In this document: positions 9,145-42,245 of the stretch, in pieces | Numbering within the stretch: position 1 is the first letter of the stretch | Layout of the letters: each line of letters starts with the position of its first letter | IMG/VR virus record: IMGVR_UViG_3300020472_000025 | Span: 1-59,308 of that record | Direction: 5' to 3' (one strand) | Length of the DNA: 59,308 nt | Source of the DNA: a virus | Taxonomy: Duplodnaviria > Caudoviricetes | Notes under the pieces: generated by a model | Database searches by the model: none | What the model was told of the DNA's origin: nothing | Seen by the model: only the letters and a program-made list of their open reading frames with translations | Program-made: the position numbers and the translations under genes

Positions 9145-10817
9145 TGGCGGTTAAGGAAGACGTTTATCTAGGTAACCCGAACCTCAAGAAGGCTAACGTT
9201 GCCACAAACTTCACACCTAAACAGGTGCAGGAGTTTATAAAGTGCAGCCAAGATCCTGTATATTTTATCAAAACATATATTAGAATCGTTTCACTAGATA
9301 AAGGTCTTATACCATTTGATCTGTATGATTTCCAAGAGGATATGGTACAGAAGTTTCATGATGATAGATTTAATATAGCAAAGTTACCACGACAGTCTGG
9401 TAAGTCAACTGTTGTTACCTCGTATCTGTTGTGGTATGTGTTGTTTAATGATAACGTTAACGTAGCAATCCTTGCTAACAAGGCAGCAACTGCTAGGGAG
9501 ATGCTTGGGAGGTTACAACTTTCCTATGAAAACTTACCTAAGTGGATGCAACAAGGTATTGTAGGGTGGAACAAAGGAAGTTTGGAGTTAGAGAACGGAT
9601 CTAAAATCCTTGCTGCTTCTACTTCTGCTAGTGCTGTTCGAGGTATGTCATTTAACGTTATATTCTTAGACGAATTTGCGTTCATTCCGAATCATATTGC
9701 TGATCAGTTCTTTAGTTCTGTTTATCCTACTATATCTTCTGGTAAATCTACTAAGGTTATAATCATATCTACCCCTCACGGGATGAATATGTTCTACAAA
9801 CTCTGGCATGATGCTGAGAGAGGTAAGAACGAATACACTACAACAGAAGTTCATTGGTCTCAGGTTCCTGGCAGAGATGCTGTATGGAAAGAACAGACCA
9901 TTGCCAACACGTCTGAAGAACAGTTCCGAGTTGAGTTCGAATGCGAATTCCTAGGATCTGTTGATACATTGATCTCAGCATCTAAACTGAGGACACTGAC
10001 ATATGAAGACCCACTCACTTCTAATAAAGGACTCGATGTTTATATACAACCAGAGCCTGATCATCAGTATACTATATGTGTTGACGTAGCAAGAGGTATA
10101 ACTAAGGATTATTCTGCATTTGTAGTTGTAGATACTAGTACTATTCCATATGTGGTAGTAGCAAAGTATAGAAATAATACAGTTAAACCATTACTCTTCC
10201 CTAATATAATAGAGGAAGTTGCTAAAGCATACAATCATGCTTATACATTAATTGAGGTCAATGATATTGGTGGACAGGTTGCTGACATCTTACAGTTTGA
10301 TCTTGAGTATGATAATCTTCTCATGTCTGCTATGAGAGGTAGAGCAGGTCAAGTTATAGGACAAGGATTCTCTGGTACTAAGGTGCAGTTGGGAGTTAAG
10401 ATGTCCACTACAGTTAAGAAGACTGGATGTTCTAACCTTAAACAGTTGTTAGAAGATGATAAATTATTATTACATGACTATGACATTATATCAGAACTTA
10501 CGACGTTCATTCAGAAGGGACAGGCATGGGAAGCAGAGGAAGGTTGTAATGATGACCTTGCTATGTGTCTCGTTATTTTCAGCTGGTTGGCTACTTCCGA
10601 TTATTTTAAAGAGCTCCACGACTCTGATGTAAGAGCAAGGATGTACAAAGAACAGAGGGAAGGTATCGAACAAGATATGGCACCATTTGGATTTGTAGAT
10701 GATGGTCTTGGAAATGAGACTGAGGTTATTGATGGTGAACTCTGGCAAACAGAGAATGATGGTGGTAAAATGGATGAATATGGAAACCGTTCTTATATGT
10801 GGGAATACTTATCATGA
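9144..10817 (+). CDS. gp17: Terminase large subunit gp17
   Basis: YLGNPNLK, PRQSGKST Walker A, FLDEFAF Walker B, DVARG and DDLAM nuclease motifs. Confidence 0.98.
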   Translation: MAVKEDVYLGNPNLKKANVATNFTPKQVQEFIKCSQDPVYFIKTYIRIVSLDKGLIPFDLYDFQEDMVQKFHDDRFNIAKLPRQSGKSTVVTSYLLWYVLFNDNVNVAILANKAATAREMLGRLQLSYENLPKWMQQGIVGWNKGSLELENGSKILAASTSASAVRGMSFNVIFLDEFAFIPNHIADQFFSSVYPTISSGKSTKVIIISTPHGMNMFYKLWHDAERGKNEYTTTEVHWSQVPGRDAVWKEQTIANTSEEQFRVEFECEFLGSVDTLISASKLRTLTYEDPLTSNKGLDVYIQPEPDHQYTICVDVARGITKDYSAFVVVDTSTIPYVVVAKYRNNTVKPLLFPNIIEEVAKAYNHAYTLIEVNDIGGQVADILQFDLEYDNLLMSAMRGRAGQVIGQGFSGTKVQLGVKMSTTVKKTGCSNLKQLLEDDKLLLHDYDIISELTTFIQKGQAWEAEEGCNDDLAMCLVIFSWLATSDYFKELHDSDVRARMYKEQREGIEQDMAPFGFVDDGLGNETEVIDGELWQTENDGGKMDEYGNRSYMWEYLS

Positions 10818-11404
10818 CAAACAATCAGACTAATTCGTGGGGAATGGCAGCAGAATTATTAGAGGATGCTAAATCTCCTTTTTTACGTGGTATAAAGAAA
10901 ACTACATTGGTAGACTACGTACGAAAGTATGCACACAAGACAGGAGATTTTACCTTATCGTCAGGACTATCCACTAGACACTATATTAATATGAAACCTA
11001 TCATCCTGACAGGTACAGGATTGGGTTTGATATCTGAGATGATATTAGAACTAATAGATACACACTGTGTAGCAGGACTCACCTTAGGTGCTGACCCTCT
11101 AGTCAGTGGTGTTGCTATGAAGGGTGGTATTGCTGGTTTAATTATACGTAAGGAACCTAAGGGTCATGGTACTCAGTCCCAGATAGAAGGACCATTACCA
11201 CCATTAGGTACCAAGATAACAGTATTAGAAGATGTATCCACAACTGGCGAGTCTGCACTGAAAGCAGTAAAGGTGTTACGTGATAACGATTTTGTTGTAG
11301 ATACTGTTGTTAGTGTAGTAGATAGAGAAGGTGGTGCAAAACAATTAATGGAAGATAATGGAATAACTCTTAAGAGTTTATGTTACTTGAGTGAATTTGT
11401 ATGA
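10814..11404 (+). CDS. pyrE: Orotate phosphoribosyltransferase
   Basis: GDFTLSSG, GLTLGADP, IRKEPKGHG, VLEDVSTTGES PRPP-binding motif. Confidence 0.93.
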   Translation: MTNNQTNSWGMAAELLEDAKSPFLRGIKKTTLVDYVRKYAHKTGDFTLSSGLSTRHYINMKPIILTGTGLGLISEMILELIDTHCVAGLTLGADPLVSGVAMKGGIAGLIIRKEPKGHGTQSQIEGPLPPLGTKITVLEDVSTTGESALKAVKVLRDNDFVVDTVVSVVDREGGAKQLMEDNGITLKSLCYLSEFV

Positions 11405-36430: not shown

Positions 36431-36852
36431 GTGACGAGATCAGTTGGTCTCAGGATATGATGCTGGAGGTTACACTAAAAGAACCAGACGATTTTCTGAA
36501 GATTAGAGAAACCCTTACACGGATTGGTGTAGCCTCTCGAAAAGAGAGAAAACTATATCAGTCGTGTCATATTCTACACAAGAAGGGTAAGTATTACATA
36601 GTCCATTTTAAGGAACTGTTTGCACTGGATGGAAAACCTGCTAACATAACTAAGAATGACATAGAGAGACGCAACAGAATCGCTAAGCTACTATTCGATT
36701 GGGGTCTTGTAGAGATACAAGAAGACCTTCTATCAAATGATGGGTGTGCACCACTCAATCAGATAAAGGTACTATCCTATAAGGATAAGAGCGAGTGGAT
36801 ATTAGAATCAAAGTACAACATAGGGAAGAAGAAAGTTATCACTGAAACATAA
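36427..36852 (+). CDS. regA: Translational repressor RegA
   Basis: PDDFLKIRETLTRIG, YQSCHILHK, YIVHFKELF. Confidence 0.97.
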   Translation: MSDEISWSQDMMLEVTLKEPDDFLKIRETLTRIGVASRKERKLYQSCHILHKKGKYYIVHFKELFALDGKPANITKNDIERRNRIAKLLFDWGLVEIQEDLLSNDGCAPLNQIKVLSYKDKSEWILESKYNIGKKKVITET

Positions 36853-38303
36853 TGAAATTTTTGGGATTGAGGATCGAAGATCACGATTCCAATATCACCT
36901 ATACTGATGGTACTAAGGTACGATATTGTGCAACCGAAAGACTCTTCGGCATTAAACATCATGGATACGATAACACTTGGCAATGGCAGGATGTGCTAGA
37001 CTCTTGGGGTGTCAATGCAGATGAGTTAGATGCTCTTGCAATTATCTCAGATCAGATAACCTTTGAGGATGGTGAAACCTATCGTGAATTGGACATGGGG
37101 TTCCCATGTAGGACGTTCGCAGTAGACCATCACTATTGTCATGCTCTGAGTCTTTGGCCACTAGGAGAAGTCCCTTACACAAATTACATCTATGACGGTT
37201 TTGGAAATAATGATCGTAGCTATTCCCTTATTCTTGGGAATAAGATTGGCTGTAGCCACAGTGTACTTACTACTGGGTCTATCGGAGTCGAAATGGCGAA
37301 GGTCGGAAGAGCACTCGGAATCGAAGCAGACCCACACGGATTAGATTTAGCAGGTAAGATCATGGGTCTTGCTGCATATGGACTTGTAGACGAAGAATAT
37401 TATCATAAGATATCACACAGTCATCTAACTGATATCAAGAAGATATGGAACTATGATTCTTGGGATCGTAAGTGGGATAATGACTTTGATATTAACTGGT
37501 TACGAACAGTACATGAGTATACTGGTGATCAACTAGCACTGTATATGAATCATCCTGTAGGTGGTGATGATGTCATAGGATATAGTGGTGGTATAGCACA
37601 GAACTGTGTGTTTAATGGTAAGATATTGAGTGGTGATAAGAAGATAATGATCCCACCTCATGCTAATGACTGTGGTCTGACCCTAGGTGCTGTAGAATTT
37701 TTGAGACAACACTACCATGAGGAACCATTTAGTAATGAAGGGTTCCCATTCTGGCAGGATGATGAAGGTACTGAAGAGGTGAGTGATCAGGTTATATTAG
37801 AGACTGCTGAGGCACTTGCTGATGGTGATATAGTTGCATGGTATCAGGGACATGGTGAGATAGGACCTAGAGCATTAGGTAACAGGTCTATCCTTATGAA
37901 CCCACGTCTACCTGATGCTAAGGACACACTTAATAGGAAGGTAAAACATAGAGAACACTTCCGTCCTTTTGGTGGTTCAGTTCTATTAGAGGATGTTGAT
38001 AAGCATTTTGAGTGGACTGGTGCATGTCCTTATATGAATGTGTCTGTACCAGTAAAGGATGATGGACTGAAAGCAATCACTCATATAGATGGGTCGTCTA
38101 GAATACAGACAGTAGATGGTGATGGATCATATGCTAGACTCCTTAGGAAGTATAAAGAGATAACAGGTGATGGTGTACTACTTAACACCAGTTTAAATGT
38201 CGGTGGTAAACCTATTGCTGGTCATAAGTGGGAAGCTAAAGAGATGTTCTCTAAGAGGGGTATAGATGTACTAGTTATTGGGGATGATATTTTGTCTAAA
38301 TAG
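36852..38303 (+). CDS. Carbamoyltransferase (CmcH/NodU/TobZ family)
   Basis: DHDS, ATER, DHHYCHA, AGKIMGLAAYG, GGIAQN, EIGPRALGNRS, RPFG, LNTSLN. Confidence 0.92.
   Translation: MKFLGLRIEDHDSNITYTDGTKVRYCATERLFGIKHHGYDNTWQWQDVLDSWGVNADELDALAIISDQITFEDGETYRELDMGFPCRTFAVDHHYCHALSLWPLGEVPYTNYIYDGFGNNDRSYSLILGNKIGCSHSVLTTGSIGVEMAKVGRALGIEADPHGLDLAGKIMGLAAYGLVDEEYYHKISHSHLTDIKKIWNYDSWDRKWDNDFDINWLRTVHEYTGDQLALYMNHPVGGDDVIGYSGGIAQNCVFNGKILSGDKKIMIPPHANDCGLTLGAVEFLRQHYHEEPFSNEGFPFWQDDEGTEEVSDQVILETAEALADGDIVAWYQGHGEIGPRALGNRSILMNPRLPDAKDTLNRKVKHREHFRPFGGSVLLEDVDKHFEWTGACPYMNVSVPVKDDGLKAITHIDGSSRIQTVDGDGSYARLLRKYKEITGDGVLLNTSLNVGGKPIAGHKWEAKEMFSKRGIDVLVIGDDILSK
38297..38302 (+). promoter_or_regulatory. 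Late promoter (TAAATA)
   Basis: ctaaatag at the end of the carbamoyltransferase gene. Confidence 0.65.
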
Positions 38304-39963: not shown

Positions 39964-40122
39964 ATGTACAGTCATCTATCATCAAATCAATTGGCAGAAT
40001 GGAATCACAACATTGAGCAGACACCAATAGAAGACCCTATAGACGAATACTTTGAGTGCTTGATTGAGTGTGATGATAGTCAGTCCAGTTGTCGAAGACT
40101 CTGCGGAGATCTTCTAAAGTAA
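39964..40122 (+). CDS. Small acidic four-Cys peptide, 52 aa (not in ORF track)
   Basis: Strong AAGGAGG RBS; MYSHLSSNQLAEW...YFECLIECDDSQSSCRRLCGDLLK*. Confidence 0.75.
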   Translation: MYSHLSSNQLAEWNHNIEQTPIEDPIDEYFECLIECDDSQSSCRRLCGDLLK

Positions 40123-40140: not shown

Positions 40141-40169
40141 GTCCCTCCTTGAGAGGGACTTTTTATTTT
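40141..40169 (+). terminator. Intrinsic terminator
   Basis: GTCCCTC-cttga-GAGGGAC followed by a T-rich tail. Confidence 0.75.
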
Positions 40170-40171
40170 GC

Positions 40172-40177
40172 TAAATA
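40172..40177 (+). promoter_or_regulatory. Late promoter (TAAATA) for the aaRS-like gene and tRNA
   Basis: ctaaatag 20 nt before ATG 40198. Confidence 0.65.
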
Positions 40178-40197
40178 GATTAGTTTGTCCAAAAATA

Positions 40198-40995
40198 ATG
40201 ACAGCCCTAATTGATCCAAAAGAATATTCCGACGTGGTTGACCTATTGAGGTCATTTTTTTTGTCTAAAAATTTCCTTGAGGTTCATACCCAAAATCGTT
40301 TAAGTATTCTTGCTGCTTGTGAAGACCCAGAAACCGTAGCAACCTATAATTACAATGGTCAAGTATGGCCACTGCCACAGACAGGTCAGATGTGGTTAGA
40401 ATATGAATTACTATCCAACCCCAAAGCAGAGGGGTTTTTCTGTGTCTCAACGTCATACAGGGCAGAACCAGATCCTGTACCAGGAAGACATGAAGTTATC
40501 TTCCCCATGTTTGAGTTCGAGATGAAGGGTGGTGTTAAAGAACTCGAAGATATGGAGAAAGAATTGTGTGAATGGTTAGGTATACCATTAGACCAAGTGA
40601 ATGTTAAGACCTATAAGGATTGGGGTGACAAGTTTAATGCAAAAGAACTTGACCACGATCATGAGAAAAAGATTCGTCGAGGTATGATTACTGAGTTCCC
40701 TGAATGGACATCACCTTTCTGGAACATGGCAAGAAATTCTGACGATACCAGTAAGAAGATTGATGTTATCTTAGGTGGTAAAGAAACTATCGGTAGTGCT
40801 GAAAGGAGTACCGACAAGGATCAGATGAGAGAGACCTTCTATACTATATCAGATGGTAAGTATGCTCAACTTATTATTGATCTGTTTGGTAAGGAAAGAG
40901 TAGAGAAAGAACTAGAAGAGTTTCTTGAGTTCGACTTCTTCCCTAGGAGTGGAGGAGGTATAGGTATACAGCGTCTTATATCAGCCCTTAAGTAG
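40198..40995 (+). CDS. Class IIb (Asp/Asn-type) aminoacyl-tRNA-synthetase-like protein, catalytic domain only (265 aa)
   Basis: Motif 1-like LRSFF..NFLEVHT, motif 2 SYRAE..GRH..FPMFEFE, ETIGSAER, motif 3 PRSGGGIGIQRL; no N-terminal OB-fold anticodon-binding domain. Confidence 0.85.
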   Translation: MTALIDPKEYSDVVDLLRSFFLSKNFLEVHTQNRLSILAACEDPETVATYNYNGQVWPLPQTGQMWLEYELLSNPKAEGFFCVSTSYRAEPDPVPGRHEVIFPMFEFEMKGGVKELEDMEKELCEWLGIPLDQVNVKTYKDWGDKFNAKELDHDHEKKIRRGMITEFPEWTSPFWNMARNSDDTSKKIDVILGGKETIGSAERSTDKDQMRETFYTISDGKYAQLIIDLFGKERVEKELEEFLEFDFFPRSGGGIGIQRLISALK

Positions 40996-41003
40996 GGCTT
41001 CTA

Positions 41004-41093
41004 TGTGAGGTGACGAAACTGGTAAACGTGGCAAGCTGTTTCCTTGCTGTTCTGTTTTGGCGGGACTTGGTGGTTCGACTCCACCCCTCACAG
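41004..41093 (+). tRNA. Atypical tRNA with GUU (Asn) anticodon and long variable arm; CCA not encoded
   Basis: Acceptor TGTGAGG/CCTCACA, G73; D-arm ACG-AAACTGGTAAA-CGT; anticodon arm GCAAG-CTGTTTC-CTTGC; 21-nt variable region with 7-bp stem; T-arm GGTGG-TTCGACT-CCACC. Confidence 0.85.
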
Positions 41094-42245
41094 TTATTTG
41101 TCTACAACAGCTGGATTAGATATTGAGATTGGTTCGAATACGAAGTCTTCATTAGGACCTATGGTTTCTCTCTTGATGAGTGTTGCCTTTCCTTTATCAT
41201 CATACTCAAAGACTGATACCTCTGTTGCTGATGTCTTTACTCGTACTGTCTTATTTTTAATGGTTTGATTACCATCTCCATCAATCTCATAGGTTGTTAC
41301 TTCATCCTTATTGTCGTTAGCAGTTACCTGTGGGATACTATGTGAGTGATTTGGTAGTCCGTTCTGTGGTAAAGTAACCACAACGTCAGCACAAACACTA
41401 GCATATGGTGACTTCGGATGGAACTTTATACCAGATTGCATAAGTTCACCACAATTTTTGAGACGAGCTATCTCAAAGTCTAGTCTTTTGTTGGCAAGTA
41501 TTTGATTTTGTAGTGCTGTCTGTGTATTATATGCTCTCTTACAACCGTTCTGTAGTTGTCTATCTAAAGGTATTGATACCGTTGCACTTATACCTAAATT
41601 AAAATTCAGGTTGTCCTTCTGTCCAGTCCTAGTAGGAATGTAGTAGAGGATCTGACCTGGATCATCTGGGATCCCATCGTCATCATTGTCTGCATTGTTG
41701 TAGACAGGATCATCATAGTAATATTCCTTAGGATTCTGATGCGATAACGCATGTGTCACGAACGGTGTGATATTGAGGGTAGGCCCCTGACACGAGATCC
41801 CATTGCCATATGTGTTTGTAATATATGGACCTTGTAATACTTGTATTGCCTGGTTGGTGACTGAGCCCGAACTATTAGCTATCGGATTGGCAGTCGCACT
41901 AACACCTCCTACGTCTGCTGCATAGGTAGGTGAACATGTTAACGCTGCAATTACTGGGAGAAGATACTTGTTGTATCTGTTACGCTTGTTACGTTGGTGG
42001 TACGTTGGATTATCGTCTGATTGGATATACCTGGTCCCATATATGTAGTCGTTAGTTGGAATGCCGCTCCTGGAGTCGTTATTGTGTAGTCTCCTAGGGT
42101 GGATAGATCCAGTTGAGATGTTGTCTGGGGCGTTGTGTCTGTGGCTGAACCAAGTACGTCTACTGTACCCGCTGTTACGTTTGCGTCGGGTAATAGACTT
42201 GATCCATTGTGTGAAATTCCTGTGCCCGTTACTGAATATTGCCAT
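41094..42245 (-). CDS. Hypothetical exported protein (true start uncertain, probably near 41975)
   Basis: Signal-like KYLLPVIAALTCSPTYA; NQAIQVLQG, NLGISATVSIPLD, RLDFEIARLKNCGEL. Confidence 0.65.
   Translation of the reverse strand: MAIFSNGHRNFTQWIKSITRRKRNSGYSRRTWFSHRHNAPDNISTGSIHPRRLHNNDSRSGIPTNDYIYGTRYIQSDDNPTYHQRNKRNRYNKYLLPVIAALTCSPTYAADVGGVSATANPIANSSGSVTNQAIQVLQGPYITNTYGNGISCQGPTLNITPFVTHALSHQNPKEYYYDDPVYNNADNDDDGIPDDPGQILYYIPTRTGQKDNLNFNLGISATVSIPLDRQLQNGCKRAYNTQTALQNQILANKRLDFEIARLKNCGELMQSGIKFHPKSPYASVCADVVVTLPQNGLPNHSHSIPQVTANDNKDEVTTYEIDGDGNQTIKNKTVRVKTSATEVSVFEYDDKGKATLIKRETIGPNEDFVFEPISISNPAVVDK

Follow-up and report, generated by a model that had tools for sequence, protein, structure and literature searches.

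We analyzed the whole of IMG/VR virus record IMGVR_UViG_3300020472_000025 (59,308 nucleotides, here called the window) and found that one of its loci is, by comparison with related loci, a three-part cassette that travels as one piece among T4-like marine phages. Its parts are a late promoter, a gene for a stand-alone catalytic core of the asparaginyl-tRNA synthetase (AsnRS) type, here called X, and a tRNA gene with the anticodon GUU. At a probability of about 35%, we read X as an enzyme that handles asparagine in the orotate branch of pyrimidine synthesis and the captive tRNA as its asparagine partner, and X would then not be a private synthetase for translation. Three facts have to be reconciled: X is tied to the tRNA in phages, X is elsewhere tied to PyrD and PyrE-F (in these phages it is tied to PyrE), and the asparagine of the hosts is present almost entirely as Asn-tRNA. 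In the ocean the cassette is abundant, with at least 597 loci in IMG/VR and at least 8000 matches in a protein search, and it has been annotated merely as "tRNA ligase" and "tRNA-Asn" since the first cyanophage genomes.

The cassette and its chimeric tRNA

The window is part of a T4-like cyanomyovirus, as judged by its gene content (portal, gp23, sheath, terminase, a gp55-like late sigma factor, UvsX/Y/W, and photosynthesis-type auxiliary genes). Over the X region its closest isolates are P-SSM7, at 82% nucleotide identity, and P-SSM2/P-SSM5, at 78%. The relevant features are as follows.

40141..40169, + strand: terminator-like hairpin GTCCCTC-CTTGA-GAGGGAC (40141-40159; 7-pair stem, 5 G-C pairs) followed by a T run
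40171..40178, + strand: T4-type late-promoter motif (CTAAATA at 40171-40177; CTAAATAG in the window, TATAAATA in relatives), 27 nucleotides before the ATG
40198..40995, + strand: gene X, a 265-amino-acid stand-alone class IIb (AsnRS-type) catalytic core; PHROG 29758; "tRNA ligase" in GenBank, T4-GC194
41004..41093, + strand: chimeric tRNA(GUU), 90 nucleotides, called tRNA-Asn(gtt) by ARAGORN; begins 8 nucleotides past the X stop codon (40993-40995)
41094..42245, - strand: convergent gene of PHROG 848, function unknown; its stop codon (41094-41096) abuts the tRNA 3' end
10814..11401, + strand: PyrE, orotate phosphoribosyltransferase; TIGR00336, 112.6 bits against a cut-off of 106.8

The tie between X and the tRNA is strict in phages. 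At least 597 IMG/VR loci encode an X relative, and among the best 80, which were kept, ARAGORN called a downstream tRNA in 72, while inspection of the sequence added two complete copies (L079, L082). The tRNA is cut by the contig end in three further loci (L008, L031, L078), and L052, L053, and L067 end within 8 nucleotides of X, such that 77 of the 80 have downstream DNA. All 77 have the tRNA, 74 of them complete and three cut. Moreover, phage clades at roughly 50 to 68% protein identity to X also have it, and the GenBank pair of "tRNA ligase" and tRNA-Asn recurs in P-SSM7, P-SSM2, and P-SSM5 beside different neighbors. The context of the pair differs between P-SSM7, P-SSM2/5, and the window.

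A reading made from the letters of the window alone (the sequence-only reading) had placed a late promoter near 40172, and the relatives bear this out: 70 of 71 distinct upstream regions carry TATAAATA (24 regions) or YTAAATA (46 regions) 27 to 31 nucleotides before the ATG. We take the motif to be a promoter from its agreement with the T4 late consensus. The stretch from motif to ATG is conserved, and similarity between loci ends just before the motif; since the motif is kept while the DNA upstream of it is unrelated, the mobile unit appears to consist of late promoter, X, and tRNA. On the left, the hairpin and T run are the predicted end of the upstream transcription unit and thus the left edge of the cassette in the window genome; the hairpin is also present in the nearest relative (L006) and is missing from most other contexts. 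On the right, the PHROG 848 gene is the boundary and lies outside the cassette, the neighbors being different in P-SSM7 and P-SSM2.

The tRNA at 41004-41093 is the only one that ARAGORN finds in the window, and the coordinates that the sequence-only reading gave for it, 8 nucleotides after the stop codon of X and abutting the convergent stop, are exact by ARAGORN and the list of open reading frames (ORFs). It has a 7-bp acceptor stem with U1-A72, the discriminator G73, a 3-bp D stem, the anticodon loop CUGUUUC (with U37), a variable arm of 21 nucleotides, and a standard T arm; CCA is not encoded. An Rfam scan of the region gave nothing at the gathering score, tRNA-Sec alone being listed (20.1 bits against 47, E 0.12) and RF00005 not being reported, where clan competition retains the best match only. 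A covariance model built from 53 distinct copies gives the window tRNA 101 bits, far beyond chance, and compensatory changes occur in 19 of the 24 predicted pairs, as for a tRNA under selection. The cloverleaf shared by the 53 copies has an acceptor stem of 7 bp, a D stem of 3 bp, anticodon and T stems of 5 bp each, and a variable arm of 14 to 29 nucleotides. In this cyanophage clade U1-A72, G73, G34-U35-U36, and U37 are invariant (53/53), and G2-C71 (47/53) and C11-G24 (46/53) are frequent. C33 occurs in 8 of the 53 copies, and with U37 in all of them the elongator rule of U33 and a purine at 37 is not kept. The standard T loop, G18-G19, U8, the 5-bp anticodon stem, and the 7-nucleotide loop are retained.

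We conclude that the tRNA is, as far as its sequence tells, a chimera in which a Leu-type class II body carries an Asn-type discriminator, first pair, and anticodon together with a pyrimidine at position 37. When the covariance model was run against five picocyanobacterial genomes, the best matches were tRNA-Leu genes (58 to 60 bits). The D arm is nearly that of the host tRNA-Leu, and both have a long variable arm, but the captive tRNA has G73 where the 3' ends of host tRNA-Leu have A73, an identity element of tRNA-Leu. Canonical tRNA-Asn shares GUU, G73, and U1-A72 with it (the last two are carried by the canonical tRNA-Asn of Escherichia coli) but has a short variable arm and A37 in place of the long arm and U37. 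The idea that a GUU tRNA had gained a long arm is weakened: the molecule looks more like a Leu-type class II body that has G73 and GUU. As a separate observation, the "tRNA-Leu(UAA)" of P-SSM7 (L001, 2911-2983), one of the tRNAs clustered directly before X, measures just 73 nucleotides and lacks a long variable arm; set against the Leu-bodied GUU tRNA downstream of X, it looks as if bodies and anticodons had been swapped.

Enzyme X and its family

X is predicted to be a catalytically complete, adenylate-forming class IIb core of the AsnRS type without an anticodon-binding domain, much as the sequence-only reading had described it. It matches Pfam PF00152 (tRNA-synt_2) at E 9e-15 (55 bits against a cut-off of 25), its residues 11 to 264 lying on profile positions 26 to 292 of 308, and it matches PHROG 29758, a family of unknown function, at E 2.5e-163. 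Motif 2 (R88, E90, R97, H98, E106, E108) and motif 3 (G252 to G256, R259) are present. The Pfam search reported no anticodon-domain family for X, and the protein begins at the catalytic core (profile position 26). Among the other ORFs of the window, PHROGs likewise gave no anticodon-domain family; Pfam was run on only part of them. A partner supplying such a domain in trans was considered and rejected, as in five Patescibacteria loci the ORFs that immediately precede X are mutually nonhomologous and have no Pfam family.

No specific model claims X. NCBIfam TIGR00457 (asnS) reached 20.9 bits against a cut-off of 342.6 and covered only residues 136 to 215; the archaeal asparagine synthetase A (AS-A) model NF005055 reached 18 bits against 389, no AsnA model appeared at E ≤1, and the EpmA models TIGR00462 and NF006828 gave 12.6 bits (cut-off, 286.9) and 17.8 bits (cut-off, 264), respectively. 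The AlphaFold model (pLDDT 96.7) is a class IIb catalytic core that Foldseek matches to aspartyl-tRNA synthetase (AspRS) and AsnRS at E 2.4e-17, and AsnRS/AspRS chains align with it only from their residue ~118 to 250 onward, which is their catalytic domain. By structural Z score the order is AsnRS (8TC9, 2XTI, 8H53, 1X54, and 9SH8; 25.4 to 26.2, root mean square deviation [rmsd] 2.1 to 2.4 over 240 to 244 residues), archaeal AspRS (24.3 to 25.1), archaeal AS-A (23.3 to 24.0), lysyl-tRNA synthetase (LysRS; 22.6 to 23.7 among the rows listed), and GenX (22.8 to 23.3).

The pocket points to asparagine or an asparagine-like ligand. In profile alignments to 2XTI (AsnRS) and 3NEL (AspRS), X reads QTGQMxLE where AsnRS has QSSQLYLE and AspRS has QSPQLYKQ; thus, X has Leu-Glu like AsnRS where AspRS has Lys-Gln, and the Glu of the "vEaE" strand like AsnRS where AspRS has Asp. 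We presume the roles of these pocket residues from the synthetase literature. X shares motifs 2 and 3 with AsnRS, and in the Gln-x-x-Gln...Leu-Glu pocket and the fEfE strand it resembles AsnRS and not AspRS, but it differs from AsnRS in lacking the N-terminal OB-fold anticodon-binding domain, in an identity of only about 20%, in a strongly conserved helical hairpin at residues 207 to 243, and in an invariant R250. The one aligned AspRS (3nel/1b8a) has His ("PH.G") at the place of R250, and His is general there in synthetases.

Other synthetase cores without an anticodon domain offer partial likenesses. The archaeal asparagine synthetase AS-AR (3P8T, 3REX, 1NNH) is also a stand-alone AsnRS-derived core of similar length, but the X family is separate and much larger, is related to it only weakly by profile (E 2.1e-6), is accompanied by a dedicated tRNA or by pyrimidine genes, and occurs in lineages where free asparagine is unusable for translation. 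EpmA/GenX is a class IIb core that has no anticodon domain and aminoacylates elongation factor P, a dedicated partner shaped like a tRNA, in place of ordinary tRNA; unlike X, it derives from LysRS and its partner is a protein. HisZ, with HisG, is a synthetase paralog recruited to a nucleotide/amino-acid pathway, GluQRS (YadB) acts on a specific tRNA, tRNA-Asp, without an anticodon domain, and ProRSx is a synthetase paralog paired with an anomalous tRNA, tRNA-ProX. These three belong to other synthetase families, and to our knowledge none is a mobile cassette of enzyme and tRNA and none is tied to PyrD or PyrE-F. A literature search found no functional description of the X family or of the pair; where Sullivan et al. 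(2010; PMC3037559) name T4-GC194, it is merely listed as a "tRNA ligase" in P-SSM2 and P-SSM7.

The family extends well beyond these phages. A search of 1.84 billion cluster representatives gave 665 matches at E ≤1e-3 and 170 at E ≤1e-30. Among GTDB genomes, 263 stretches encode X relatives, and of the best 80, which were kept, six short marine contigs have the special tRNA while the other 74 have only ordinary tRNAs nearby. The 74 belong mostly to Saccharibacteria and other Patescibacteria, with Aureispira/Chitinophagales and Rickettsiales in addition; they are 56 to 62% identical to X, and some lie on 0.7-Mb chromosomes. At this level of identity, family members in giant viruses, Bacteroidota, Patescibacteria, and Rickettsiales share an invariant active site and lack the special tRNA. 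The jumbo phages L004 and L005 have no special tRNA within 3 kb. The expectation that the long-arm tRNA would accompany homologs therefore holds for phage homologs, which keep it, and fails for nonphage homologs, which never have it.

A quick maximum-likelihood tree of 71 representatives unites the main tRNA-linked phages (support 91), along with two nested loci that lack the tRNA, and puts another tRNA-linked pair close to the jumbo phages. Giant viruses group with Bacteroidota (support 97), and Patescibacteria make up a single clade (support 99). Among 193 aligned sequences, identity reaches at least 97% at 84 of the 265 positions, including PLPQTGQMWLE, R88, R97, H98, E106, R203, and R259, and R88, E90, R97, H98, and R259 are invariant. 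Since catalytic residues and pocket do not vary, we infer one chemistry for all members. Distant relatives (27 to 37% identity) often lack the motif 2 and motif 3 arginines and, judged from that loss, may be noncatalytic proteins like HisZ; several of the distant members (P0186, P0240, P0254, and others) keep Q61, E106, the G220-x-Y222 helix, and R250.

Some gene orders around X relatives may be recorded here. In three Patescibacteria classes (L173, L154, L148) the order is Dus, a small nonconserved ORF, X, and dnaX; Dus, the tRNA dihydrouridine synthase, has a flavoenzyme fold like that of dihydroorotate dehydrogenase. A Saccharibacteria locus (L143) has a pair of NUDIX genes plus RimK on the downstream side of X, and in jumbo phage L004 a RimK-like ATP-grasp gene and a phosphoribosyltransferase gene follow X.

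Pyrimidine genes and the supply of asparagine

The tie to pyrimidine genes comes from fusions, neighborhoods, and co-occurrence. Two long matches in the protein search are fusions, one of PyrD with X (P0123) and one of X with PyrF (P0147). Used as a query in IMG/VR, the PyrD+X fusion found 28 loci, mostly in giant-virus bins, and among these the special tRNA occurs only in five phage-like ones (L104 to L107, L109); the X+PyrF fusion found no viral locus. PyrD and/or a PyrE-PyrF fusion is found no more than 4 kb from X in 3 of the 16 giant-virus-type loci scanned (L097, L103, L088), and a nucleotide-metabolism neighbor (ribonucleotide reductase [RNR], dihydrofolate reductase, PurH, or PyrD/EF) in 8 of the 16. 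Gene orders in Aureispira are PyrD-MBL-X and PyrEF-PyrD-TIR-X, where the MBL gene is PqqB-like. In one of these genomes (L130, 4743-5657, - strand), the gene between PyrD and X encodes a TIR domain like that of Thoeris ThsB.

X-bearing Bacteroidota also appear to lack the standard entry to the pathway. The pyrB model found a transcarbamoylase at E ≤1e-10 in none of five such genomes and in 14 of 14 controls. In the same five genomes pyrC passed its cut-off in none, PyrF was found in all, and canonical asnS passed its cut-off in four. In gene content, the Bacteroidota genomes G091 to G095 (those of L124, L130, L146, L178, and L131; 2.7 to 7.8 Mb) have PyrD and PyrE-F and no detectable aspartate/ornithine carbamoyltransferase.

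In cyanophages the link runs through PyrE. Among 516 phage records matching the capsid protein gp23 (476 of them at ≥60% identity), X and the window-type PyrE occur in the same six records of three isolates (P-SSM2, P-SSM5, and P-SSM7). One jumbo phage and six viral fragments from single cells have the window-type PyrE as well. From this co-occurrence, the PyrE of the window is possibly linked to X in function. The start of pyrE overlaps the end of the terminase large-subunit gene, within the late structural block, and since PyrE is itself a late-block gene, late expression of X is no argument against a nucleotide role.

The hosts are of interest for how they supply asparagine. In the picocyanobacterial family (the family with the "Prochlorococcaceae" metagenome-assembled genome; 1.0 to 3.9 Mb), asnS passed its cut-off in 0 of 81 genomes, the best matches (about 100 bits) being AspRS-sized and LysRS-sized ORFs, and a full-length AsnB-type synthase was present in about 11 of 26 genomes. 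Without AsnRS, Asn-tRNA must come from a nondiscriminating AspRS (ND-AspRS), which loads aspartate, followed by GatCAB. Bacterial GatCAB is described as recognizing U1-A72 and the D-loop (PMC2811023). All 53 tRNA copies of the cyanophage clade have GUU, G73, and U1-A72, as a substrate of ND-AspRS and GatCAB would need.

Candidate roles of the pair

How the parts might work together can be laid out for the reading that we favor. X and the phage PyrE would jointly feed the (dihydro)orotate branch of pyrimidine synthesis, and where a host forms asparagine solely on tRNA, the captive tRNA would be the asparagine handle of X. The host ND-AspRS would read GUU and G73 and load aspartate onto the captive tRNA, GatCAB would read U1-A72 and amidate the aspartate to asparagine, and X, retaining the acceptor-end side of a synthetase, would act on the asparagine at the 3' end. 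U37, the occasional C33, and the long arm would keep the captive tRNA poor in ordinary decoding. Because the anticodon is invariant and X has no anticodon domain, some other reader, whether host enzymes or the ribosome, should see the anticodon; the proposed scheme would explain both the invariant anticodon and first pair and the tolerated poor-decoding positions 33 and 37. If it is correct, a tRNA-dependent step in nucleotide biosynthesis has been packaged as a mobile phage cassette.

A bolder form of the proposal, which we consider rather unlikely, would give X the key step in a so far undescribed route, independent of aspartate transcarbamoylase (ATCase), that leads to dihydroorotate or orotate. 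The route would start from asparagine, or from aspartate activated in the style of AsnA, and would be used by ATCase-less Bacteroidota and giant viruses; the captive tRNA of cyanophages would be a dedicated carrier on which ND-AspRS and GatCAB of the host build the asparagine that X consumes. A role of X in pyrimidine synthesis would supply a missing ATCase-independent entry to a textbook pathway, common to bacteria, giant viruses, and phages, with a tRNA as metabolic cofactor.

Several observations weigh against assigning the pair to pyrimidine synthesis. We know of no reaction that makes a pyrimidine precursor at an AsnRS-type site, nor of an earlier case in which such an enzyme uses Asn-tRNA. 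The X protein is strongly acidic (pI 4.8, net charge -17), and a comparison of pI, charge, loop, and residues found neither clade-specific basic residues nor a change in the motif 2 loop in tRNA-linked X. The tRNA clade of L104 to L107 and L109 has A1-U72 and not U1-A72, which weakens the argument from GatCAB. Inside the tRNA-linked clade, the phage-like loci L120 (6001-6795) and L121 (6001-6855) have X without the tRNA. The co-occurrence with PyrE amounts to just two or three independent phage lineages with a shared host type, and in the window PyrE and X lie 29 kb apart. Finally, PyrF was found in none of five other X-bearing genomes (four of the Saccharibacteria type and one of Rickettsiales), and only one of these has a strong PyrD match; as the active site is identical there, a pyrimidine role is not universal. 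These five non-Bacteroidota genomes have GatB (5/5), none has asnS over its cut-off, and two have a 440-amino-acid protein at 244 bits. Around X in L120, the next ORF begins 20 nucleotides downstream and an RNR-like gene lies upstream.

The closest competitor keeps X in translation. X would asparaginylate the captive tRNA, which it would recognize not by the anticodon but by G73, by the weak pairing of 1 with 72, and by its class II body, giving a direct, glutamine-independent supply of Asn-tRNA for late virion proteins in a host without AsnRS. The strict linkage under a shared late promoter, an AsnRS-type pocket that fits the GUU anticodon, the intact catalytic residues, and the retained tRNA core all agree with this account, as do the absence of AsnRS from the hosts searched (0/81) and the presence of X in Saccharibacteria-type and Rickettsiales genomes where asnS never passed its cut-off. 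Three marine RNA libraries add a little: they hold only short contigs of relatives, one of which (151 nucleotides) bridges the 3' end of X into the tRNA, and as DNA carry-over is possible the evidence is weak. Such a role nevertheless leaves unexplained the fusions with PyrD and PyrF, the PyrD/PyrE-F neighborhoods, the co-occurrence with PyrE, and ATCase-less carriers of X that have AsnRS (4/5). Moreover, hosts without AsnRS, and often without AsnB, are expected to hold little free asparagine for charging, and U37 (53/53) and C33 (8/53) are poor for decoding. The sequence-only reading had proposed a coevolved pair of this kind; its co-inheritance stands, in 77 of 77 loci and in three isolates, and so does the match of pocket to anticodon, but the same enzyme with an identical active site occurs elsewhere without this tRNA, X shows no tRNA-specific adaptation, and the pyrimidine contexts do not fit. 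On balance, we regard private charging as possible but doubtful. Were it true, the pair would be a natural minimal orthogonal pair without anticodon recognition, and a phage would be repairing a gap in the translation apparatus of its host.

It is unlikely that X and the tRNA are mere neighbors, with X a tRNA-independent metabolic enzyme and the tRNA an odd tRNA-Asn that is charged by the host and serves codon supply or nuclease resistance, the two traveling together because X had come in beside a tRNA gene, where recombination is common. X homologs without the tRNA in four other lineages would fit, as would the position of X within a tRNA cluster in P-SSM7, and tRNA genes are noted to accompany nonsyntenic regions (Sullivan et al. 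2010, PMC3037559), while anticodon-loop changes in phage tRNAs are discussed as an escape from host nucleases (PMC10264068). Chance company would hardly keep the tRNA in every locus with downstream DNA and in clades down to about 50% protein identity despite changing flanks, however, and the amino-acid theme of the enzyme matches the anticodon; the tRNA itself is chimeric in a conserved way, unlike a normal tRNA-Asn. Less probable still is that X, like the truncated archaeal AsnRS paralog, makes free asparagine from aspartate, ammonia, and ATP. The core-only architecture (about 265 to 295 amino acids), the structural match to archaeal AS-A (3rex_B; Z 24.0, rmsd 2.5, 239 residues aligned), and the profile match to 3p8t speak for it, but AsnRS chains score slightly higher (Z 26.2 against 24.0, within about 2 units), the NCBIfam AS-A model is far from its cut-off, and the tRNA and pyrimidine contexts would go unexplained. 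Free asparagine would also be unusable for translation in the AsnRS-less hosts or in the X-bearing genomes G002, G004, and G005. Least probable, and in our view very much so, is that the tRNA serves another reader or is a decoy, being serylated by the host seryl-tRNA synthetase (SerRS) so as to place serine at asparagine codons, or titrating ND-AspRS and GatCAB. The identity rules of SerRS (G73, G2:C71, C11:G24, and a long arm) agree with the class II body, G73, and the prevalence of G2-C71 and C11-G24, but base pairs 2-71 and 3-70 of the acceptor stem are not constant, the variable arm has a short stem of 4 predicted pairs, and there would be no reason for linkage to an AsnRS-type enzyme.

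Two further ORFs lie near the cassette in the window. A small Cys-rich ORF of 52 amino acids (39964-40122, + strand), with no family match, sits between a PHROG 570 gene and the terminator-like hairpin. A carbamoyltransferase gene of the NodU/CmcH type (36852-38300, + strand; PHROG 1601; NCBIfam NodU at 91.6 bits, far under the cut-off) lies 1.9 kb upstream of X, which could be coincidence or could reflect the possible role of X in the pyrimidine branch.

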